Source of the DNA: Octopus vulgaris
Lineage: Eukaryota
DNA length: 64,000 nucleotides
Reading direction: 5' to 3'
NCBI GenBank assembly: GCA_951406725.2
Contig: OX597817.1
Span: forward strand, 136,214,001 to 136,278,000
How positions within the stretch are numbered: the first letter of the stretch is position 1; each line of letters starts with the position of its first letter. The position numbers and the translations under genes were made by a program. Positions 4,620-48,801 of this stretch are shown piece by piece. Below the pieces are notes generated by a model, which did not search any database, was not told the DNA's origin, and saw only the letters and a list, made by a program, of their open reading frames with translations.

Positions 4620-6170
4620 TAAAATGCCTTAGAGATATCTTGTGCATGAAGGATGAAAAGAATTCAGCGTTTGTTCAATAGGGGAACTCTGGGAAAAGAA
4701 GACCTCCAGGTTTTCTGTGGTGCAGATATTGCAAAATTATTTATTTCTCAAGACCGATTCCATCCATTTCAAGATCATCCAGCTAAGATTAAAAAGTAGA
4801 GATTGCCCTTAAATTTAAAATGTATGAAATTTGTGATAGTGGATCTGTTGGTGTTTATAAATGGGTGAGAACAGGAACAGCATTATTATTGGGTTCCCGC
4901 CATTTTTTTAATTTTGGAATTTATTGTGTTTTTAAATTTTGTAATCTAATTTTTTTGAGAATTCTATTTTTGAATCATCTTGGAATCTATTTTGTTTTTT
5001 TTTCTAGTTAATTTTAGTTAATTTTTGTTTATTTTCAGATCATTAAAATGGAATGTCAAGTGAAGAAAAACTTCTGCACACAAATTCTCATCAAACGACA
5101 AGGAAATGCTCCCACACTGCTACAGAGAAGCATCTTCACTCGATGGGAAGGGGTCACATGTATGGAGCATGGGTTCCGCATGCTTTAAATGACAACAATA
5201 AAAATCAACAAGCCACAATCTCCACTGGTTTGCTTGCTCGTCACCACTCAACTCATGGACACAAGCAACAATTCCTTTACCGAACCGTTATTGGCGACGA
5301 AAACTGTTGCCTGTACATCAATATGAAGCAGTGTAAGGAATAGCTTAGCCCCGGTAAACAAGCGACACCACGCGTAAAGCAAGATTTTCATCCGTGTAAA
5401 ACGATGTTGTGCGTATGGTGGGACTGGGAAGGGATTATCCATTATGAATTGCTTGAATGGAACCAAACGGTCAATGCGGAACTCTATGTTCAACAGATGG
5501 AATGACTCAATACGACTATTCAAGAGAAAAGACCTAATCGGCAGCATGGAGTTCTTCTGCTGCACGATAACGTCCACCCTCATATCGCCAATATGACCAA
5601 GGAAGCCATTCAAACGCATGGCTGGGAAGTGCAGCCACACCTGCCATACTCTCCTGATTTGGCACCAACGGATTTCCACCTCTTTCGATCTCTTTCAAAT
5701 GCTATGCAAGGAGTTTCGTTCAATACTGATGCAGAATTGAGAGCTTGGTTGGATCAATTTTTCAAGTCGAAATCGAGTGATTTCTACCGAGATTTTGAAA
5801 ATCTTGTTGAACGTTGGGAAGAAGTTGTAAACAACAAGGGTGAATACATTATTGATTAATTAGTTGTTACTTTTTATTAAACCTTTTAAAAAACTTTAAT
5901 TTTAAAAAATGGTGAGAACTTAGTTGCCCACCCAATATTTGAAATGGCTCAGTGTTGTGCCAACATAGGTCTTTGGTATTAGGTTTGAATGCACTATGCA
6001 AGGTAGACAAAGTCCTTGGTGAAACAATTCTGGTCCAAAGAGAATGTGTCAAGGTGATGGCAATTGTATTTTCTACAAGAAATTGGTGGTTGATGTTTGC
6101 TGAGCTGAGAGAAGTTAGAGTTTGTAATGAATTGGTGAAAATGTGGATGTTTGAGTAGGCAACTTTCATA
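4620..6170 (-). pseudogene. Decayed Penelope-like element GIY-YIG endonuclease region, split by a mariner insertion
   Basis: Minus-strand frames give KVAYS, CRKYNC...SLDQNCFTKDFVYLA and KTYVGTTLSHFK (about 5940-6170). On the other side of the mariner they give STITNFIH, LSWMILK...FCNICTTENLEVF and LNKR (about 4640-4885). This resembles the CxC..C..C / VY..YIG / CNLC..EK / LNKR pattern of PLE endonucleases; many stops and frameshifts. Confidence 0.6.
4889..5935 (+). mobile_element. Mariner (DD34D) transposon, internally deleted and inactive
   Basis: Frames give MECQVKKN, GAWVPHAL, VIGDENCCLY, LLLHDNVHPH and YSPDLAPTDFHLFRSL. Terminal inverted repeats ttggg...ttcccgccatttttt / aaaaaatggtgagaac...cccaa are flanked by TA at 4887-4888 and 5936-5937. 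Confidence 0.92.
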
Positions 6171-12387: not shown

Positions 12388-13655
12388 GACTTCACATGTC
12401 AGCATTGTCAGAAAAAGACTGACCACGTTCCTAGAGGAAAAATTACTTGCTTACAGACACACAACATGGTTTCCGTCCTGGACGGAGCTGCCTAACACAG
12501 CTACTACAGCATTTCGACTGGACACTAAAACAACAGCTCAACCATTCAAATGTGGATGGGATATATCTCGACCTTGCCTAGGCCTTTGACAAAGTCGATC
12601 ATGGGATGATATGTTACAAATTACATGACCTCAATATCGCTGGCAGACTGGGAGAGTGGCTGCATGATTTCTTGAAAGGCAGAAGTCAGCTGTCACAGCA
12701 AATGGTGCTCTCTCCGAAGTGTCACCAATCCTCAGCGGAGTCCCCCAGGGAACAGTGTTGGGACAACTGTTTGTGGTTGCTCTCTCAGACATGCCCTCAG
12801 CCATTGAGTCAGCCACACTCACCAACTACGCCAATGATACAAAAGTATCGCAGGTGTTCAAGGATCCTACTGACATCTTGAGACTGCAGAACGACCTGAA
12901 CACAGTATTTAAGTGGGCAGATGAGAATAATATGTAGTTCAATGCTGCAAAATTTCAAGCACTCTGCTATCAGCCCACAAACAAATTGCACAGGACCAGC
13001 AGGCAATGTAATCTCCGAGTTAGAGTCGGTGCACAACCTGGGAATCCACATGAGGAATGATGCAACTTTCCATGCGCACATTGCTCAGATAGCAAAACTA
13101 TGCAGGTGGGTGGCAGGTTGGATCCTTAGATCCTTCAGGACCAGGAGCAGAAACATGATGCTTCTGCTTTGGAAAACCTTTGTCCTCAGTTGTTTGGACT
13201 ACTGCTCCCAACTGTGGCCACCACAAAGAGCAAAACTAATTGCAGAATTAGAGGCAATCCAATGCCACTCCACACTGAAGATAGATTCAGTAAACCACAA
13301 GGGCTAATGGAAGAGGTTGAAGGAATTGGGACATGAGAGATATGCAGTGCTATGCATATGGAAAATAATGGAGGGTCTAGCTCCAAATTTCAGAATCGAA
13401 ATCAACAACAATCCCTGAACTGGACAGCACTGCACTGTACCAAAGGTCCCATCTTCTCCATCGAGGATACAAACCCAATATTGTAATAGCTTCAGATTCA
13501 AGGATTCACAACTTTTTAATGCCTTACCACAAAATATCAGAGGTGTAGACATGGAAGTCTTCAAAAAAGGTCTAGACAGTTTCTTATCTGCAACACCAGA
13601 CGAACCCACATTGTGGCAGGAGACACATAGAAAAGCAGCAAGTGAAATTGGCATT
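12386..13655 (+). mobile_element. 5'-truncated CR1/L2-group LINE, reverse transcriptase and C-terminal region, decayed
   Basis: QHGFRPGRSCLTQLL, IYLDLA*AFDKVDH, SGVPQGTVLG, YANDTKV (YADD-like), LQNDLNTVFKWA, NLGIHM, LDYCSQLW; frameshifts and stops. Confidence 0.92.
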
Positions 13656-26270: not shown

Positions 26271-29200
26271 CTACTTCCTCTCCTGGACCCCTGTGTTAAA
26301 AATACTCAGGATGCATCATGTGTCCAATTACAAATTATGTCATTCCCTTCAACATTTAGCTTTTCCTCCTTTTGATGGAGTCTTTGATTATTCCTGAGCT
26401 AAGTTTTAGGTTATTGTTATGCTGCAAATTTCATGATTGCTCCAAAATCTCCAGATTGATTGAGCTATTTTTGATGTCCTTCATCTGATGTATGAAACTG
26501 ACCTCTTTTAATGACATGCTGCCCCAAATTATGACATTACCAATAGCTTAATTAAGTGCCAGATCCTGATTGGTCATTGGATGGACACTTGGCTGTCAAA
26601 ACTAAACCAACTCACTCTCAAATCACTTGACCCTGGTGCTGGTTGCTGGAGCCTACCGGTGAGTATTTAGAAGGAAATTTGGCAGGATGGTCAGTCACCT
26701 GTTGACATTCATTGACGCTGCATTGAAGAAACCAAAGAACAAAAGAAAAAAGGAGAAAGGGAAAAAGCATTCAACACCAGAGCTGAAGACACCTCTGAAA
26801 AAGTGGGGGCACCATGTCGCAAATGTTAGAGGATTAGGGGCCGAAACTGGATGTAGTTCCTCCTGATGATGTCTTTAGCCACTGGATCCTATAAAAGAAC
26901 TGTTGAGGTAGCGAACCACGAACCATGATTGGAATTCCCCATTTGATCAATGAGAGAAAACTTTGTTTTGTATTTCCTAGTGAACATTAAGAAAAACCTG
27001 TTTTTCATAGAAATAAAAGTACAATAAGCACCACAAGCTGGAATTTCTTTGGTCAATGTCTGATAATATTATCCATGTGCAAAATCATTCTCAATCAAAA
27101 GAGTAGTGTACACAGCAGAAGATATACCTTTTGTCCCCACTTCTACTCCAACTGTCAATCCCCTAAGAATGGAATGTGAGTCAACCTTTGCTGAAGATGA
27201 ACCTCAACAGATACCCTGCAGTATCGCACAGGCCAACACAAACAACTACAACAACAGCAAACTCAATAAAAACTAAGTGTTCTCTTACTCCTCCTCCTAC
27301 AGCAATAACAACAACAACAGTGACAATAACAAAAATAAAAATATGTACAACAATAACAAAAACTGCAACAACAGCAACAGAATCAAATCATCAGCAAACA
27401 CAAACTGAAAATCAATCCCATTGGCAGAGATTGACTTATATGTAGAAGACAACACACAGAGTTTAATCCTAGGTAGTGGCACGGGTTAGCCAGTAGGGCA
27501 GAATGTCACTACTGCCTCATATTGCTTTCCCCTTCTCACATGCCATAGTGACAGACAGGATTACAAAAAAAAAAAAAGCATCTACAGAGGATAACAAAAA
27601 CATACAGAATGTAATAAAGATAGATACAGAGGGTAATATAGACATATACAGTGGATAATAAAAGTCACATACAGAGTGTAATTAAAGACATATACAGAGG
27701 ATCTGGAACAGTAGTGGCACTGTGACATTTCGCACCAAATATTCACTTGCTATTCAAACAAATGGTATTGAAACAGTGCTATGGTGGTGTTCCTAAATAC
27801 GAAGAGTTTTTACCCTGTGCAATGAGAGATTTAGGGCTCCTGGAATAATTAAACAATAGTAGAGTACAAAGACTGTTCCTTTTCATGTGGTTTGGCAAGG
27901 TTTTAAGATCCTATCTACCCGGTGTATTTTGATCACTGTTAGGTTGGGTGATAGTCACCACCTTTACAACTGCACGATTCTTAACAAAAGATTCTATGCT
28001 TTCTGACTGGAAGATCATATGTTAATCTTAGATAATCCTGCTATATTCTTATCGTAGAAGAACCAAACAAAGCAAATGCTCTTAAGCAAAATAATTATTG
28101 TGTTCTTTGAGTTAGCACCTAGTGGTACCTTGCAAACTGAAACAACATCAAAAGATTCCTTTGTTCAAGAATTTTATTGTAATTTTACACACAAATACAC
28201 ACATATACTTACATATATGCACACAAATATTTACATATACACACACAAACACGTGATTATATATACACAAAAACACGCTCACACATGTATATACAAACAC
28301 ATACACATACATTCACTTACAAACATATACTTACACACACACATACATATACAAATACATACGCAATCACACTTATACTTACATACACAGATAAATACAC
28401 ACATATACAGTGACAAGTGGGTTAATATATACACATTGATAGATGAGTGCTTATTGGTTTATGTTAAGCACATGTGCATAGTTAAATGCATATGTACACT
28501 CACACACATGTATACATACATACGTATGTACGTACATACGTACGTATGTACATACATACAAATACATACATGTATACATACATACATAGACACATACATG
28601 TATACATATGTACATATATATATACATATATATACATATATATACTTACACACACACACATATACATATGGACATAAATACATACACGCATACATGTATA
28701 CAAACGTACATATATACATACATACATACCACACATATGGACTTCAATAAATGCTTTTATACTACTTTTATACGCATCAACATACATATATGCATATCTA
28801 CATACATACACACACAAACACCTTCACACACATTCATAAACACATACATGCATCCAAGCATACATATATACATCTGCATAGACAACACATACATAAAAAC
28901 ACACATATACATACAAACATACATACTTACACACAAAAATATACATCTACATACATATAAATACATGTACACACACACACACACACACATTAATTCCCAA
29001 AGCAAATCCAATTTGTTTTGGGAATGAAGATTGGCAAAAGGGGCTGCCCATATTGACTGTCCGTTCCCTAGTGGTTGATAAATCCACCACAGGATTAGGA
29101 AGAGACCCTATCACTCTGGCTGCAAGGGAAATTCTGTCCCAGGTTTGGAGCTGCAAGGTCACAGTTCTTATTTTGTCAAAAACATCTCTAAATGAGTTCT

Positions 29201-35984: not shown

Positions 35985-36200
35985 TCTTTTCTACTCTAGG
36001 TGCAAGGCCCGAAATCTTTGGGGAGGAGCTAGTCGATTAGATCGATCCCAGTACACAACTGGTACTTCATTTATCGACCCTGAAAGGATGAAAGGTAAAG
36101 TTGATCTCAGTGGAATTTGAACTCAGAACGTAAAGACAGAGGAAATACCGATAAGCATTTCGCCCGGTGTGGCGACGTTTCTGCCAGCTCGCTGCCTTAC
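35985..36200 (-). mobile_element. tRNA-headed SINE, family S3 (also about 44925-45110, 60630-60767, 61983-62156)
   Basis: Reverse complement begins aaggcagcgagctggcagaaacg...ttctgagttcaaattcc (A/B boxes) and ends gggccttgcacctagagtagaaa. Confidence 0.8.
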
Positions 36201-36382
36201 TGGACACACAATATTGAGCCATTGAGCTTTTCAGTCTAATTTCACCTAAAAACTAAACCAACCAAGACAGGAAGGGGTGATATGTCAGTGCCTTCAGCTT
36301 ATAGCTTATTACCAATACAACCATACAAAGTCGGAAACTATTGGATGAGAACAACAGTATTATATAGATAACAAGGGAATTT

Positions 36383-36794
36383 ACATTATTTACATTTGTC
36401 GGATATTTGTCCTCATCTTGTTTGTTGTTAACACAACATTTCGGCTGATACACCCTTCAGCCTTCATCTGGTGTCTTGGGGAAATTTCGAACCTGGGTTC
36501 TCATTCCTAAAGAATTTTTCGATGTTATTATTATTATTATTATTATTCAGGTCACTGCCTGGAATTGAACTTGGAATCTTGGGGTTAGTAGCCCGCGCTC
36601 TTAACTACTACGCCATATGCCCACGGGCATATGGCGTAGTGGTCTTAACCCGGGCTTGAAACTTCCCCAAGATACTTGATGAAGGCTGGAGGGAATATCA
36701 GCAGAAACGTGTTAACAACAAACAAGATGAGGACAAAAAATCCGTCAAATGTATATAATGTACATAAGTCCTCATCTCTTAAATATAGAACTAG
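36383..36794. mobile_element. Family A fold-back element with 13-bp target-site duplication
   Basis: Minus copy, hairpin junction ctacgccatatgccc-ac-gggcatatggcgtag, internally deleted plus copy with tail; aacaagggaattt at 36370-36382 and 36795-36807. Confidence 0.85.
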
Positions 36795-37431
36795 AACAAG
36801 GGAATTTGTCTGTTGGAACAGTGTGTAAGATATATGTCAGAAAGGGGCAAAGATGAATAACAACAGTAAAAGTGGGTTTTGTTGGATAAGATGATAACAA
36901 TGCCGGACGTGATCGGTTAACGAATGCCAACTAACAACACCATCAAATGCCATTCGTTGACATTGGAAGAATGCAGTTAAATTGATGGCACTGTCTTTTA
37001 CAATGAGACAATGGTAAAAACAGATGTGGGAGAGTAAGGCATTGGTGATACAGCAGTTAGGTCAGACGTGGGACTGTGGAGTTAGAGCTGTGTGATGACA
37101 GAGGATTGGAGGCACACTGTGTCACAGCTAGCAACACGCCAGTAACGATAGCAATAAGGTGGTGGTGGTGGTGGTGGTTGTGACAATAATGGTGATGATG
37201 TTGGCGGAGCTGATGCTGATGATAATAACAGAGCTGCATGGCAACATATAACGGCCTGTAGATAACATTTGATAAAACAATAATGATGTCTTTAGAATAA
37301 TCATAAAGATAAACTTTCTTTTAAGAATCATTTTAGCAGGTAAAAGAGACACAAATATTACTGGTATTTCATCGATACTGGAAGGACTGAAGAACACAAT
37401 GATATCTGGGCAAGCATATACATACATACAA

Positions 37432-37466
<35 letters not shown>

Positions 37467-37686
37467 TATATATATATTTGTACATATACATACACACACA
37501 CACATATATATTTGTACATATACATATACACACACACACACACATACACATATTTGTACATATACATACACACACATATATATATATATATATACATTTG
37601 TACATATGCATATACACACATACACAATAGATGCTATAGAGAGACAAGTCTGGTACGCAGCTGTTCAGAAAAAATACATTGCCATC

Positions 37687-37741
<55 letters not shown>

Positions 37742-38250
37742 TTTCATTTATTTGCCTCAAGGGTGAAGGATGAGGAGGACAATACAGAGAGAGAGACATA
37801 AAGTGTAGGGGTTTACATATAATGAAATGACAAAAAAAAATGTAAGAAAGAAAGTATACACGGTATACACTGAAAAAGAAGGGACACATACATAGCATAC
37901 AGAGGTTTAAAAACAACAACAACAACAACAACAACAATAAATATTAACAACAACAACAATAAACTCTATATACTGAGTAATTCTATACTTGTTTGATGTT
38001 TAGAAATGTGCCATATTGTGTAAATATTAATTATATGAGATTGCTAGTCCAATCAATACATAACGACTCTGGTAGTAATAAGTCATTTCAGACATTTGGT
38101 AGTTTGGAAAAAAATCCTCATAGAAATCCTTCAAATAGATGTGTGTACAAAGTGTGTGTGTGTTTATCTCCATAAACTGTGATACATATGCACCAATCTA
38201 TCTGCCTGCCTGCCTGTCTGTCTGTCTATGCACCTATCTATCTATCTATC

Positions 38251-38291
<41 letters not shown>

Positions 38292-38459
38292 CATAAGGGA
38301 CTAAAGCCATCTGAATATGGCTAGGGACAGGGCAGGGTGGTGGGGGTGTTACTGTTGCATTTAGCCCCAGGCGAACATCGACGTCACCAGAAAGGCTCGA
38401 CACCGTCACGGTGCCCTTAACCTGCAAAGGGAGGTAATTACCCGATGAAGCGGAAACCA

Positions 38460-38505
38460 CACACGGACCATGGTTTCAAGGTGTATTGCCTATCGTCGGC
38501 GTGTG
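38460..38505 (-). ncRNA. Type I hammerhead ribozyme, CCGACGA-core variant (inverted copy)
   Basis: Exact reverse complement of 38760-38805. Confidence 0.7.
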
Positions 38506-38759
38506 GTAGGCTTCCGCTTCCTCGACGAATCCTCACTCTGCAGGATATTCATATATAGATTTTCAAGCAAAATACATTTGCTGATTTCGAAAATCTGTTC
38601 GAAAGCAATAATGTTATCGAGCAGTTACTGTCTATATCTCTTTTAGAGAATTATTATTGCTTTCGAACAGATTTTCGAAATCAGCAAATGTATTTTGCTT
38701 GAAAATCTATATATGAATATCCTGCAGAGTGAGGATTCGTCGAGGAAGCGGAAGCCTAC

Positions 38760-38805
38760 CACACGCCGACGATAGGCAATACACCTTGAAACCATGGTCC
38801 GTGTG
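38760..38805 (+). ncRNA. Type I hammerhead ribozyme, CCGACGA-core variant
   Basis: cacacg-CCGACGA-tagg-caataca-cctt-GAAA-ccatg-GTC-cgtgtg. Helix I cacacg/cgtgtg, helix II agg/cct, palindromic helix III accatggt, GUC triplet with predicted cleavage after 38799. Confidence 0.72.
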
Positions 38806-39119
38806 TGGTTTCCGCTTCATCGGGGAATTACCTCCCTTTGCAGGTTAAGGGCACCGTGACGGTGTCGAGCCTTTCTGGTGACGTCGATGTTCGCCTGGGG
38901 CTAAATGCAACAGTAACACCCCCACCACCCTGCCCTGTCCCTAGCCATATTCAGATGGCTTTAGTCCCTTATGTTATCGAGCAGTTACTGTCTATATCTC
39001 TTTTAGAGAATTATTATTGCTTTCGAACAGATTTTCGAAATCAGCAAATGTATTTTGCTTGAAAATCTATATATGAATATCCTGCAGAGTGAGGATTCGT
39101 CGAGGAAGCGGAAGCCTAC

Positions 39120-39165
39120 CACACGCCGACGATAGGCAATACACCTTGAAACCATGGTCCGTGTG
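39120..39165 (+). ncRNA. Type I hammerhead ribozyme, CCGACGA-core variant (second tandem copy)
   Basis: Identical to 38760-38805, offset 360; predicted cleavage after 39159. Confidence 0.72.
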
Positions 39166-40544
39166 TGGTTTCCGCTTCATCGGGGAATTACCTCCCTTTG
39201 CAGGTTAAGGGCACCGTGACGGTGTCGAGCCTTTCTGGTGACGTCGATGTTCGCCTGGGGCTAAATGCAACAGTAACACCCCCACCACCCTGCCCTGTCC
39301 CTAGCCATATTCAGATGGCTTTAGTCCCTTATGTTATCGAGCAGTTACTGTCTATATCTCTTTTAGAGAATTATTATTGCTATATATATATATATATTAT
39401 GATAAAAAATACAAAGCAAAAAGCCTTGTGAAAAACAGTTACCCAGGGTTCCCTGGTTGAGATATTAATTTATTTTGCCATTTATGAAGATGGTAAAAGC
39501 AATGACAGTTTAGTAACTGCATACAATGCAACTGACGTTTGAATGAGCACATGCATTTAGAATAAAAATGGAGAAAAATGAAGGGGAGATAATGAACTGA
39601 ACAGTAAATATAACCAGTGTCTTACACGTATGTACAAAAAATTACATAAAACAACACTGGAATGTGTTCTCCTTAAATTTCGCTAAGATGTATTTTATAA
39701 AGTGTGGGCATGAAGAAAAAATCTCATATTTATGCAGTTACTGAAGATTGTTTTCTTTTAAAAAGATACAGCTTTTCAAGTGATCATAGAGAACTTTTTT
39801 TTACTATTAATATAAAGGTTTGGCTTAAGAAAGGATCTCCCATTTGATGCAGTTGATCTCATTATTAAGTCTCCTTTCCCCTCTTCCATCTCTTCTCTCT
39901 TTCTGTCTGTCTCCCTCTTTCTATCTCCATCTTCATGCTGATACTAGTGAGATATCTGTGTTGGAAGCTAGGAACAATTGGTTTAATATCCCTCTTATTT
40001 ATAATGTAACTGCTTTTGAGACCAAACAGAAGCTTGGCACTTCCCATCTTTTCCTCCCAATACAATATCAGGCCTGTGGCAAAGACACCTTATTTGCAAC
40101 ATTCAAATCCACCCAAACAATCTCTAAAGTATCCAACCAGGGTAAGGACAATCATTTTACAGGGCTGAGTTCAATTCCTTGGTTATATAAATCGAACAGC
40201 CAGTGCCGGTTGACTGGGCCACTGCCGCCTGACTGGCATGTAAAAAGCACCATCCAAGCGTGGCTGATGCCAGTACCGCCTGACTGGCCCTCATGTTGGT
40301 GGCTTGTAAAAAGCACCTACTACACTCTCAGAGTGGTTAGCGTTAGGAAAGGCATCCAGCTGTAGAAACATTGCCACATCGGATTGGAGCCTGGTGCAGA
40401 CTTCTGGCTCACCAGCCCTCAGTCAAACTGTCCAACCCATGCCAGCATGGAAAGCGGATGTTAAACGATGATGATGATGAACAGTGAGAAACTAGCTCTG
40501 GTCCGTTTTTTATCCCTAACCATTAGCCTAATGGGTTTGTGTAT

Positions 40545-40762
40545 AAGGGGGTGGGGCTGTAAAATTCCTGGTTTTGGGTAAAAGAAAATTTAGAAGGATC
40601 AGTTAATTATGATTTTATTCAACATATTCCCTTCTCAGGTTCACACACTCATTGCAGGGGTCCTTCAGTTTTTTTAAACCCTGTAAAAGAAGTTAGAAGG
40701 TTGGGCTTCCAACCTGGCCTTTTGCAATGCCCTTAAAGCCAGGAACTATTTTTAACCTCTCA
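40545..40762. mobile_element. Mariner-like MITE
   Basis: Degenerate TIRs ggggctgtaaaattcctggtttt / aaagccaggaactatttttaacc around about 170 bp of non-coding sequence. Confidence 0.55.
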
Positions 40763-42453
40763 CCTGTTGCCAGGTCCATAAGGTGAAACGAAGAGATGAT
40801 TAAATATTTATTTACATGTAGCACTGAAAACATGTAGGAGGAAAATGTGACTTGCTATTCTGAATACATCAGGAAGTTTGTTGAGTGAGATTTCAGAGGA
40901 GAAAGAAATACAGGAAGAGTTTTGCCTGAAAATGGTATTTGACTTTCAAAGAGATGTGTATAAAATTTGCCCAGCACAAGATTAAGTAATCAGCTCTCCT
41001 AGTTCTTGTCTTATTAGTAATGCAGGGTTATTATCATTATTTTTAAAAATTGTAAACAGTGATGAAGTTGCCTTAAATTATGGTGTCAAAGTTTAGATCA
41101 GATCCTTGATATTTATAAATGTTACAGTTTAATTAGTGAGGTAAGTTAATTACAATACATCCTCACTTAATCATTTGTAAACGAATGTTAAAAATAAATA
41201 TGAAACAATTTTTTTTTTGTTGTGCCTGGGGACAGTCACTCTGTTTTAATGCCATATTAATTAACACACTCACCGGTTCAATTTCCATTCATTTATAATT
41301 TTTTTTTTCTAAAATTTCCATTACTTCATGAATCCATTTGCAGATTCATTAATGCATAATACATTAATAAGTTCATTGTAGAGAAAACTATGGTTAAAAC
41401 CAAACATGTTCAGCTAATTGTAGAACCATTTCTCCATGCAAACATGTAGAAATGTTTCGTAAATAGATCGTAAATACAAACAGAAATCGTGTCCAGTCAA
41501 TGGTTTTCATTACTCCTCTTTTTCCCCATCTTTTGCATGTTTCAGTCAGTAGAATGTGGCCATGCTGGGGCACCACATTGAAGAATTTTAGCTGAACAAA
41601 TCAACCCTGGTATTTGTATTTTTTTAAAGCCTGGTACTTTTTCTATCAGTCTCTTTTGCCAAACTGCCAAGTTATGGGGATGTAAATACACCAACACTGG
41701 TTGTCAAATGGGGGGGGGGCAAAAACAGGCACACACACATGACAGGCCTCTTTCAACTTCTGTCTAATAAATCCACTCACAAGGCTTTGGTTGGCTCAAG
41801 GCTATAGTAGAAGATACTTGCTCAAGGTGCCACACAGTGGGACTGAACCTGGAACGTTGAGACTGAGAAGGAAACTTCTTACCACATAACCATAGAAGAA
41901 GAGAAAACAAAAACATTGAATTTTAAATTTGATAGTAATTATTTTTGTTTACAAGTGCACAAAACTAGATTCATAGAGATGAATGAGATGGTCTGACATT
42001 CATGCCTTTCTCAAGGGTTTTACCAGTAAATCAAACAATAACTCTATAGAAAACAAAGTCAGTATTTAGTTTAGAGTGAATGCTAGAATTGAAACCTTAA
42101 CCCTCTAGTATCTACATCTGCTTCAGCTCCTATCTCTTGATGTCTGGTATTCTAAATAAACAATTGAAATCTAATTATATTTACTTATTTGAGTCAAACT
42201 TCATGTTTTCCATGATCTTCTGTAAAACAAGAACAATGGCATTTGCACTCAATAAATTCTTATTTACTCTCCAGTAATCTTTGTTTAAACTGATTACTTT
42301 CTTCGATGGAAACAATATTTTAACACAAAATACTCTCTGATATGCACAAAATAATAAACCTTACCTTGTATTAAATAAACTAACAATAACTATGAAAACC
42401 AAAGAGGAATTTGTTTTGTTTCTATCACACAACTGGTTTCCTATTCTGTACAG

Positions 42454-45530: not shown

Positions 45531-46480
45531 TACAGCTCTTCAATTCGGAGAGGGTGGCACTTTCCAATTCATCAACAGGAACTTAGCCATATGCTTACAA
45601 TACAGGATGCTTGGGCTAAATTCGATAATTTGAATAAGAGAAGAAACTACAATATCCCATCCAGAAATAAAAAAGTATTTTGAAAAATCAAAAAACATCA
45701 ACTTGACTATGGCTGGGATGTAACAGTTACTCAGAGTAGCTGCCCTCAGCTGCCACCATGGCCTCAAGACCCCAGAACCTGGTGTATGTATTCCTCACTG
45801 TGTCCCAGGAGAGATCTTCAAACACCTTCTTGATCTTAGTCACCAGTTTGGCCAATAGAATAGTTGCAGTCTTTCTCAACCGTGTCCACATATAATAACC
45901 CAATGGATAACAAGCAAGAGAATTAGGAGGCCAGAATTTGGGGCTGGTAAAGTTGTAGAAATTTTCTGACAACTCCTTCAGGAGGCATATATAGCAAGAA
46001 GCTGAATCCTGCTATCGTGCATACGGTTTTGCAGCTGCAATCCCCTCCAGCTGGGAACTGACCACACTCTCCAGCCATTTGAATTGCACTTAACACCCTG
46101 TTCAAAGATGTGGGGCAGCATGATGTCACCCTCCCAGGAGACACACACAGAGACAATTTGAAGAAACTTGGCTTTCATGATACATGGGACATCACATACA
46201 TAGTTTTGGTTGTTGTCTGACTGGTTTTGGCAGTTCTTTTCATCTGCAAAGAACCAGACCATCCCTAGATCAACAGGATTCCTCAGCTTGCTCAGGGGCT
46301 TCTTTGCTTTCGTCAAGCAGTTCTCCTTGGCCCCAGTTATCAGAATTTGTCCTTGTACCTCTTGTATGAATAGTAGCAAAGGTCCTTATTCAAGACTGGC
46401 TTCATGGTGACAACTCTAACACCTATCTCTATCACCTAAGTCCGAATTCCATTGCTTTTGGGTCTTCCATCACCTTATTG
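45531..46480 (-). mobile_element. Decayed maT/DD37D-like Tc1-mariner transposon
   Basis: MVWFFADEKN, VPCIMKAKF, EGDIMLPHIFEQG, QQDSASCY and SENFYNFTSPKFWPPNSLACYPLGYYMW across frames. Confidence 0.8.
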
Positions 46481-48801
46481 TTGGATGAATTCTGGTATGT
46501 GGATACAGTCAGAATGCCTGCTGTGTCCCTTCCTGCTGGCCACAGCTTTGTAGTCTCAGTTGCAGCTGTCCATGTCATCTCTTCAAGCCTTTACAATGTT
46601 CACAGAGCATTGAGCAGCAGTCATGGTGTCAGCATTTTGATACTCAGAGCAAATCATCATGACACAGGTGACTGTCTTCCAATATTCAGATGACTTCCAG
46701 TCCTCCAGGTCAGCTAACCCTAAACCAACTACAACTTCTCAATGTTCAGGCTCTCCAATGCCATTAACTGTTCACCAATACATCAAGCTCTTCCTAAAAA
46801 GGGAAATGCGTGTTGTTAGTTTGTGGGCCAGATTGGTTTTTAGGTGTAAGAGAATATATTCTCTAAGCACCTGGTGTACAAAACACCTGAAAGTAAGTCA
46901 GAGTCAAGCGAGACAACTTACATCAAGTCCTTTCTCAGAGTGACAGACATCAAAGTTTCATCACTGTTTTGACATGTATAAATATATATTCTTGTATTAT
47001 TTTATTTGTTTCAGTCATTTGACTGTGGCCATGCTGGAGCACCACCTTTAGTCGAACAAATCGACCCTACAATTTATTCTTTGTAAACCTAGTACTTATT
47101 CTATCGGTCTCTTTGCTGAACTGCTACGTTACAGGGACATAAACACACCAGCATCAGTTTTCAAGCAATGGTGGGGGGACAAACACAGACACACACATAT
47201 ATACATATATATATATATATATACTACAGGCTTCTTTCAGTTTCCATCTACCAAATTCACTCACAAGGCTTTGCTTGGCTCGAGGCTATAGAAGACACTT
47301 GTCCAAGGTGCCATGCAGTGGGACTGAACCTGGAACCATGTGGTTGGTAAGCAAGCTACTTACCACACAACCAAATATATATATATATATATATATATAC
47401 ATATCACCATCATCATCCTTTAATGTTCGCTTTCCATGCTGGGGGTGGGGGGTTGGACGGTTTGACTGAGGACTGTTGAGCCAGATGGCTGCACCAGGCT
47501 CCAATCTGATCTGGCAGAGTTTCTACAGCTGGATGCCCTTCCTAACGCCAACCACTCCGAGAGTGTAGTGGGTGCTTTTGCGTGCCACTGGCATGAGGGC
47601 CAGTCAGGTGGTACTAGCCACGGCCATGCTCAAATGGTGTTTTTACATGCCACCAGCACAGGAGCCAGTCCAGTGGCACTGGCAATGACCTCGCTCGAAT
47701 GTTGTTTTCATGTGCTACTGGCACAAATGCCAGGAAGGCATCACTGGTAACGATCATGCTCAAATGGTGCATTTTACATGTCACTGGCATGGGAGCCAGT
47801 CAGTGGCCCTGGCAATGATCACACTTGATGGTGCTTTTAGCGTTCTACTGGCACAGATGCCAATCATGTGATGCTGTCATTGAATTTGATTTTGATTTCG
47901 ATTTCACTTGCCTCAACAGGTCTTCGCAAGCATAGTTTAGTGTCCAATGAAGGAAAGGTACGCATAAGTGGGCTGGTTATACCACTGGCATAGGCCATGA
48001 GGTTATGGTCTCACTTGGCTTACCGGGACTTCCAAAGGTCTAGGTCACTAGTCATTGCCTCGGTGAGGCTTAATGTTCAAAGGTCGTGCTTCACCACCTC
48101 ATCCCAGGTCTTCCTGCGTCAACCTCTTCCACAGGTTCCCTCAACCGTTAGGGTGAGACACTTTTTCGCCCAGCTATCATCACTTAACATCCATTGTCCA
48201 TGCTGGCATGGCTTCGATGGTTTGACCACGGCTGGCAAACTGGAAGGTTGCACAAGACTCCAGTCTGATTCGGCATGGTTTCTATGGCTGGATGCCCTTC
48301 TTAATGCCAACCACTCTGAGAGTGTAATGGGTGCTTTTACATGACACTGACACAGGTGCCATTTGCGTGACATCAGTATCTGCCACGATTGTGATTTTAC
48401 TTGTCTTGATGGGTCTTCTTCTCAAGCACAACATAATACCAAGGTCTCTGTCATATTTATCATTGTCTCCACAAGGCTCAACACTTAAAAGGCGCTTTTT
48501 ATGTGCCAGGTACATGACACCAGCATCGACCACAACTATGATTTCACTTGGTTTGAAGGGTCTTCTTCTCAAGCACAGCATATCGCTGAAGGTCTTGGTC
48601 ACTAGTCATTGCCTTTGTGAGGTTCAAAGTTCAAAGATCATGCTTCACCACCTCATCCCATGTCTTTCTGGGTCTGCCTATACCACAGGTTTCTTCCACA
48701 GTTAGAGGTCAGTACTACTTTATGCAGCTGTCCTAGTCCATGCACATTACATGACCATATCAGCACAGTCGTCTCTCTTTCACACCACATCTGATGCCTT
48801 T

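Follow-up and report, generated by a model that had tools for sequence, protein, structure and literature searches.

A young dispersed retrozyme of Octopus vulgaris with the genomic footprints of Penelope-like element mobilisation

The array at 38288-39381 of the window (the whole 64-kb stretch of DNA analysed) belongs to a small non-coding dispersed element, of which it is a young copy. It is a non-LTR retrozyme whose insertions bear the genomic footprints of mobilisation by a Penelope-like element (PLE), a step that had earlier been proposed. The element works like a non-autonomous PLE while having the anatomy of a non-LTR retrozyme and a variant ribozyme core. We give a probability of roughly two thirds to the reading that this non-autonomous non-LTR retrozyme inserted here recently and was moved in trans by a PLE, probably by a Neptune-type protein with reverse transcriptase (RT) and GIY-YIG domains.

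The 360-nt unit and its variant hammerhead

The features of the locus are as follows (coordinates, strand, description; the reading of the tail follows the accessible text of PMC11167929).

38255..38290, no strand: left (TA)n target microsatellite; its last 2-3 bases are common to the short end of the element
38288..38612, minus: inverted 'short-start' arm, unit positions 43-360 plus 1-7, 3' end outward, without the 44-nt tail; substitution at 38440
38447..38520, minus: hammerhead in the inverted arm, mirror of 38745-38818; predicted cut between 38466 and 38465
38611..38612, no strand: head-to-head arm junction, 2-nt overlap (AT)
38613..38652, plus: 40-nt hairpin loop, unit positions 3-42, incidental to the locus
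38611..38970, plus: tandem unit 1 of the 'long-start' arm, 360 nt
38745..38818, plus: type I hammerhead copy 1, predicted cut after 38799
38800..39159, plus: predicted cleavage-to-cleavage monomer, candidate 360-nt circle
38971..39330, plus: tandem unit 2, identical to unit 1
39105..39178, plus: type I hammerhead copy 2, predicted cut after 39159
39331..39381, plus: partial unit ending at the fixed long 3' end of the family (position 50); the T at 39381 is common to the microsatellite
39338..39381, plus: 44-nt 'tail' between the two fixed 3' ends, which are the putative reverse-transcription starts
39381..39397, no strand: right (TA)n target microsatellite

An earlier note on this DNA had described two identical 360-nt units followed by a 51-nt partial unit, and a 325-nt inverted copy with one substitution and a 40-nt loop. 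Both descriptions hold. Units 38611-38970 and 38971-39330 are completely identical and the opening 51 nt of the unit recur at 39331-39381, while 38288-38612 is the reverse complement of 38653-38977 except for a single substitution (38825 G vs 38440), the loop between the arms being 38613-38652. The long-start arm thus measures 2.14 units and the short-start arm 0.90 unit. Confirmed in the same way are the location of the array inside (TA)n, present on either side (38255-38290 and 39381-39397), the lack of a credible ORF (at most 90 stop-free codons in the circular 360-nt unit), the retention of CpG (18 observed vs 19.8 expected in the unit, for an observed/expected ratio of 0.32 in the whole window) and strong self-pairing (z = -5.8 for 38800-39159 folded as a circular monomer, against 100 dinucleotide shuffles). 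The GC content of the unit is 47%. The RT/GIY-YIG ORF that an autonomous PLE would carry is absent from the 360-nt unit. Within the whole 64 kb, neither a second copy of the element nor a PLE ORF was found, and a 781-aa PLE protein gave no match in the window by tblastn; a blastn search of a phage collection with the element gave none either.

The type I hammerhead that the earlier note assigned to each copy stands as regards its topology, which can be drawn in every copy and covaries, but not as regards a consensus core. Cuts are predicted after 38799, 39159 and, on the minus strand, 38466. Stem I has 6 bp, a 3-nt bulge and a long extension, stem II has 3 bp, and stem III has 2 bp closed by a four-base loop; these stems surround CCGACGA, GAAA and UC. 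The core at 38766-38772 reads CCGACGA and not CUGANGA, with the change U4C at 38767, and a U.U forms the base of stem II (10.1-11.1) at 38773/38787. A canonical CUGANGA/GAAA/UH core with a paired stem II base is therefore lacking. An Rfam scan of 36000-42000 at E <= 5 returned no hammerhead and only chance microRNA-like hairpins, and no antisense hammerhead was found in the element.

An alignment of 14 sequences, covering the family of the window element, its older subfamilies and a sister family B (about three independent lineages), indicates that the hammerhead fold is under constraint. Pairing is kept in 98% of cells, 7 of the 18 pairs have changed on both sides, and compensatory changes affect stems I and II as well as the stem III palindrome. 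None of 500 shuffles reached the covariation score, which also lies above all slid controls, although relatedness inflates it and it is not to be taken as a probability. Stem III and its loop form an 8-nt palindrome (38791-38798), the loop reading CATG, CTAG or TCGA and being palindromic in all three cases. This palindrome is predicted to pair with that of a second copy at -11.2 kcal/mol, which agrees with the dimeric design that PMC4209133 describes in type I hammerheads of metazoans. For a single copy, tertiary contacts ignored, the active fold lies 8.8 kcal/mol above the minimum-energy fold.

The variant core is widespread: the genome holds 1,196 exact copies of the U4C form and 0 of canonical U4 in the identical context. 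Every core of the fetched subfamilies (CCGATGA, CCGACGA, TTGATAA, TTGACGA, TTGATGA) is off consensus, the older subfamilies having U3 with A8 or G8 and the young ones U4C. Family B has the canonical CTGATGA (19/21 copies matched), and a PLE family of the same genome (L109/L117) has the same combination of U4C and U.U. According to the accessible parts of the literature, U4C 'considerably decreases activity in vitro' and is tolerated in a viroid (PMC3088659), the U3-A8 core occurs in PLEs (PMC4209133), an axolotl retrozyme with a U.U at the base of stem II cleaves, the dimer better than the monomer (PMC7229834), and of 9 predicted Xenopus retrozymes 8 failed to cleave (10.64898/2026.07.22.740005). 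Given these natural precedents for U4C and U.U, together with the canonical 5' core of family B, we class the element as a retrozyme variant. Its core is likely weak or dimer-dependent; self-cleavage is plausible on the predicted folds, and would probably be slow or require a dimer. It should be emphasized that hammerhead searches built on the canonical core can overlook a family of more than a thousand copies.

Insertion anatomy of the dispersed family

Searching the genome (2.8 Gb, 227 contigs) with the unit, a check named in the earlier note, gave 207 matches at the 40 scored of 674 candidate places, many of them 98-100% identical. Genome-wide, the long 3' end abuts (TA)n in 773 exact junctions (control 0) and the short 3' end in 621 (control 1). 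The view of the element as a young, (TA)n-targeted dispersed repeat is thus upheld, and the occurrence of an ORF-less tandem 360-nt unit at hundreds of loci is in keeping with a non-LTR retrozyme. Its subfamilies are about 83% to 100% identical to the window copy. Family B is older (2,805 candidate places, copies ~90% alike, unit of ~357 nt) and has the tail and the ribozyme region in common with the family of the window element.

Two sets of loci were analysed. The best-match set comprises 39 places among the 150 best matches listed; it is biased to full units and includes the window locus. The junction-picked set comprises 80 loci among the first 100 long-end junctions listed, 4 more being already in the best-match set and the other 16 left out. 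Two head-to-head arms are present at 29/39 and 63/80 loci respectively, in agreement with the tandem plus inverted, PLE-type insertion suggested earlier. One arm ends at unit positions 44-51 and the other at 2-9 in 27 of the 29 two-arm loci of the best-match set. In the junction-picked set, the long arm was found at 78/80 loci (L131 is without the element and L179 was missed by the parser), and the short end falls at positions 2-9 in 59 of the 63 two-arm loci, at position 7 in 49 of them; 2 of the 4 exceptions extend beyond the fetched stretch.

The tail (unit positions 8-51, 44 nt) is found at one outer end only and, at the window locus, is missing from the outer end of the inverted arm. The earlier note was right that one arm lacks a tail but not about its size and place, having put it at 40 nt. 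The 40-nt loop was considered as the missing tail and rejected: it covers positions 3-42 and depends on where the arms joined, and this inner junction (the pair of arm 5' ends) is distinct in 91/92 two-arm loci.

At the target, (TA)4+ is present on both flanks of 44/58 loci. Among the 14 others, four (L031, L037, L055, L127) show target duplications of ~8-12 bp; these enclose the whole two-arm unit, which indicates that both arms arrive in one event. A target-site duplication is undefinable at the window locus. In the junction-picked set, 53 of 141 arms are longer than one unit, 14 of them longer than two; the longest arm found reaches 10.9 units (L048), and two others (L185, L222) have about 8 units each, limited by the stretch fetched.

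The 5' ends of the arms follow another pattern. The array does not end at the cut site, and arm 5' ends do not accumulate there: run-off on linear monomers, with arms stopping at the cut site, was hinted at by the first 20 loci, but over 80 loci the 5' ends are spread over 190-345 with no accumulation at 190. A gathering of 5' ends at the tail was also dropped, as it was confined to the set selected for full units. Taken as a whole, the insertions have the form of those of a non-autonomous PLE: tandem and inverted 5'-truncated copies, a one-sided tail, and an AT-rich or (TA)n target with a short duplication.

Template, enzyme and competing explanations

Sequence variation lies between loci and not within them, 31/38 loci being homogeneous across their units. 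Among the 7 heterogeneous loci, L048 is a mosaic of several family haplotypes, which could reflect template switching or a mixed linear template. The two arms agree at shared polymorphic sites in 23/29 loci (L057, one of the 23, offers no site common to both arms, and one inner piece of L068, misaligned, is excluded), compared with 5.3 +/- 1.6 after shuffling (maximum 14 in 5,000). For instance, 293A>G is present in 6/6 units of L057, both arms of L044 carry 308+C, and 29T>C occurs in the two arms of L034 and of L062. When long arms of the junction-picked set are compared with short arms, 42/54 match that of their own locus best or tied for best. None of the 146 units spanning the predicted cut site carries an indel at 186-193, which makes end-to-end jumping on cut linear monomers unlikely. 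Furthermore, since nearly all inner junctions are distinct, parental junctions are not copied, and they are almost never carried into daughter loci. Shared haplotypes, clean spans of the cut site and new inner junctions together require a bottleneck of one unit followed by regrowth, which a circular monomer would provide most simply. One monomer template was thus probably copied repeatedly, as the earlier note proposed, and this monomer was probably a circle; on balance, we judge a hammerhead-released circle the probable template. No sequencing run listed as containing the unit is on record as RNA. Contigs of four runs were also searched: a 390-nt closed-loop contig (the unit plus 30 nt) is present both in X1 and in X2, two runs presumed to be RNA, with 1 and 2 differences respectively. 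It fits a circle, a tandem transcript or DNA equally well, contigs being unable to separate a circle from a tandem, and the contigs stop short of crossing the microsatellite.

The most serious competitor, which we consider unlikely, keeps the PLE machinery but has it copy long linear transcripts of a few master arrays, multimers that stay uncleaved, with a weakened or vestigial hammerhead and no circle. The weak variant core and the lack of run-off at position 190 would suit it, as would the in vitro insertion of a PLE, which needs no cleavage (PMC11167929, accessible text). Possible master arrays do exist, namely L185 and L222 and the 10.9-unit arm of L048, and variants confined to two neighbouring units are known, if only at L035, L055 and L061. 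However, many haplotypes each fill whole loci and both arms, so that the single-unit bottleneck and the regrowth would still have to be explained, and linear copying could only shorten arrays. The near absence of inherited inner junctions and the compensatory changes that keep the stems and the stem III palindrome also count against a linear multimer.

How the two arms come together bears on a second, improbable explanation, in which monomers or short arms insert, tandems then grow by unequal exchange (the minisatellite route of 10.64898/2026.07.22.740005, as far as its accessible text goes) and the inverted arm is a fold-back copy of the first cDNA. In 19/59 loci (shuffled expectation 4.1) the short-start arm ends 0-25 nt beyond the long-start arm on the template, and in 1/59 (shuffled expectation 3.5) it stops 1-25 nt short of it, arm ends being BLAST ends and uncertain by a few bases. 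The arms of one locus are not independent. Such close 5' ends would be expected of snap-back, self-priming at palindromic junctions has been argued for PLEs (PMC3846280, in part accessible), and local amplification would also homogenise units. However, in 20/63 loci the arm without the tail exceeds the tailed one in length and hence is no copy of it, and single-unit changes are mostly unmirrored between arms, the exception being the innermost units of L062; a simple fold-back of the tailed arm fails on both counts. The short second arm of L048 matches the outer and not the inner units of the first arm, and near-identical young loci already have multimers in both arms. Either two polymerases travel on one RNA, the trailing one catching up, or the leading cDNA snaps back and anneals to the second cDNA; both fit. 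The window locus, with an offset of -402, lies outside the 0-25-nt class.

As for the enzyme, we are nearly certain that a PLE protein moved the element. The genome holds 6,136 GIY-YIG candidates (150 scored), among them an intact potential source: a young PLE family with 781-aa frames encoding an RT and, at the C terminus, a GIY-YIG domain (9 copies, 96.5-99.7% identical), whose linker zinc-finger motif and C-terminal endonuclease appear to fit Neptune as described in the accessible text of 10.1101/2021.04.23.441226. At L109, an ORF-bearing PLE locus of another family, the arms likewise lie head-to-head in (TA)n, and one of their ends is long, the other short. A blastn comparison of the unit with 50 GIY-YIG loci of the 6,136 candidates revealed no autonomous element having this sequence in common. 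A 46-nt match to the tail at L109 was rejected as a sign of partnership, being a separate family B insertion, and the only other match in these 50 loci was of 21 nt. Comparison of the tail with the 781-aa family gave p = 0.20 for the family of the window element (A) and an uncorrected 0.03 for family B, and alignments of the tail to four PLE families were unconvincing.

The PLE literature, in its accessible parts, describes precisely this form of insertion: partial tandems accompanied by a 5'-truncated copy in inverted orientation, one end bearing a tail of 30-40 bp (10.1101/2021.04.23.441226; PMC3846280). In vitro, an anole PLE cuts and extends both DNA strands at AT-rich sites, its tail extends from one internal start of reverse transcription to the other, and hammerhead cleavage is dispensable for insertion (PMC11167929).

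Other machinery, either a LINE acting by twin priming or a Helitron-like or fold-back DNA route, is very improbable. LINE-1 twin priming also yields inversions, and the search of the 50 GIY-YIG loci found no PLE partner. Against this, the octopus element lacks a poly(A) or simple-repeat tail of its own, it has two fixed 3' ends 44 nt apart, and the same architecture recurs in the ORF-bearing PLE at L109 and in the PLE descriptions cited above. Finally, an assembly or library artefact (a chimeric palindrome, a duplicated unit), which the perfection of the tandem and palindrome might suggest, can be dismissed, as the asymmetric long and short ends recur genome-wide at 86 loci on many contigs, the window locus included, with target duplications and a substitution between arms.

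With PLE mobilisation of a circular template as the preferred reading, the cycle may be pictured as follows. Multi-unit arrays would be transcribed, neighbouring hammerheads, paired by way of the palindromic stem III, would cleave the RNA at unit position 189/190, and a host ligase would close the released 360-nt monomers. The endonuclease would stagger its nicks in (TA)n or other AT-rich DNA, a step that would leave the 8-12-bp duplications seen as its footprint. The nicked strands would then prime internally on the same template, at position 50 and ~44 nt upstream (2-9), where the fixed 3' ends are seen, and each polymerase would travel a variable distance, up to 11 rounds of the unit. The cDNA ends would lastly join head-to-head at a new point each time, often via short microhomology, a step whose footprint is seen at the junctions.

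Tentatively, and at somewhat less than even odds, a broader proposal can be made, namely that PLE integration on circular RNA has left its natural record in the ~800 loci. The RTs of a PLE dimer would work from opposite strands of nicked (TA)n, starting 44 nt apart on one closed 360-nt RNA, for up to 11 rounds before the head-to-head join, with the upstream starter leading. The ribozyme core would have been tuned down in successive subfamilies so as to cut only as a dimer in multimers, leaving the circle intact. If this is true, a single mechanism would account for retrozyme tandems as well as for the inverted PLE ends.

Comparison with known systems

Retrozymes, their circles, shown as RNA in coral, mussel and axolotl, and their proposed mobilisation by PLEs, called 'a strong candidate' for the enzyme that moves animal retrozymes, are already known (PMC7229834, accessible text); the octopus family is known here from DNA. 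Like these metazoan non-LTR retrozymes, it has an ORF-less tandem unit in the 170-400-nt range, one type I hammerhead per unit and a highly self-paired monomer. The axolotl HHR_Amex2 / Rtz_353 likewise combines a 2-bp helix III and tetraloop with a helix II whose base is a U.U mismatch, and HHR_Amex2 cleaves better as a dimer. The metazoan retrozymes of that paper have CUGANGA, whereas the octopus family has U4C or U3-type cores, and its unit GC of 47% compares with <45% in the retrozyme legend. Furthermore, the octopus family displays head-to-head arms, fixed 3' ends, target duplications and (TA)n targets, while 'inverted' and 'target site' each occur 0 times in the main text of PMC7229834 as accessible.

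With the EN+ PLEs (Penelope/Poseidon, Neptune and Naiad; PMC11167929, PMC3846280 and 10.1101/2021.04.23.441226, each in its accessible part), the family shares partial tandems, an inverted 5'-truncated copy, an optional tail at one end, AT-rich or (TA)n targets, short duplications (8-10 bp in these PLEs) and a hammerhead, which in EN+ PLEs lies in the terminal repeat. Unlike them, the octopus element has no RT/endonuclease ORF, one 360-nt unit being the whole element; its tail is 44 nt compared with 30-40, and both of its arms are often multimers. The Chlamys clade, for example MRC1 of Chlamydomonas, includes non-autonomous members, but the clade is described as without hammerheads in 10.1101/2021.04.23.441226; its non-autonomous members resemble their autonomous partner at the 3' end, whereas the 50 GIY-YIG loci searched in octopus hold none with such a resemblance.

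No description of two-arm, dual-start retrozyme insertions or of the octopus family was found in a search of mainly open literature, and the family may be catalogued in repeat databases or subscription journals. Being short, young and numerous, it allows both arms of each insertion to be read against one template, and it offers a ready substrate for in vitro work with PLE protein. That a 360-nt unit with a ribozyme displays the complete signature of PLE insertion bears on two open questions, what moves retrozymes and how PLE ends are formed, the formation of the tandem and inverted ends being stated as open in the accessible text of 10.1101/2021.04.23.441226. A study of vertebrate retrozymes (10.64898/2026.07.22.740005, accessible text) reaches the same overall conclusion, that retrozymes are non-autonomous PLE sequences. 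The argument there comes from genomes that are mostly of vertebrates, by way of co-occurrence and of pLTR phylogeny, and local tandem amplification is proposed, whereas the evidence from octopus is the anatomy of insertion sites, which favours multimers made at insertion.

Mosaic arms and the position of arm ends

At one fetched locus (L048:2093-6348), an arm of the retrozyme insertion comprises 11 units, in which at least three family haplotypes are arranged in blocks, and the short second arm agrees with the outer block of this mosaic. Together, the haplotype blocks of the long arm and the matching short arm suggest that template switching occurred within a single insertion event. The 5' ends of arms fall mostly at unit positions 190-345, the GC-rich hairpin half, and seldom at 52-190. 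This preference holds on the first and on later passes round the unit, and suggests that stalling or joining depends on sequence.

Related copies and neighbouring features

At L064:1920-1978, a family A copy is inserted in the (TA)n bordering the 3' end of a different PLE family. This PLE end is the same as that found at L085 and L091, and the copy is a nested use of the same (TA)n target. An older sister retrozyme family, family B (L140-L164; example L109:5560-5820), has a unit of about 357 nt and 2,805 candidate places. Its 5' hammerhead core is canonical, and it has in common with family A the tail end and the (TA)n target.

The whole unit (window:38611-38970) is also present, with 2 differences, in sequencing run X2 under a second organism label, and sequence words of the unit occur under organism labels C, D and E. 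The window further contains the following features, of which the three frames presumably resemble fragments of LINE reverse transcriptase and Tc1/mariner transposase:

12900-13304, + strand: stop-free frame
45981-46385, - strand: stop-free frame
5251-5694: stop-free frame
1998-2237: minisatellite, 43 bp period
27575-27700: minisatellite, 22 bp period
47625-47862: minisatellite, 130 bp period

ORF-bearing Penelope-like elements

A second ORF-bearing PLE family, distinct from the young one described next, lies at L109:4790-4850 and L117. It carries a hammerhead-like motif in which, as in family A, the core has U4C and stem II has a basal U.U; stem III of this motif is palindromic. A young Neptune-type PLE (L100-L107 and L119) encodes RT and GIY-YIG in a 781-aa frame and has its own hammerhead-like motif (core U3-A8) as well as two 3' ends separated by about 38-40 nt. 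Its frames at an example locus are:

L103:568-2004: upstream frame
L103:1926-4268: 781-aa frame

The upstream frame, of at most 479 aa, had no convincing match in Pfam. Canonical EN+ PLEs are described as having a single ORF; in this young Neptune-type PLE an apparently separate upstream frame precedes and overlaps the 781-aa frame.
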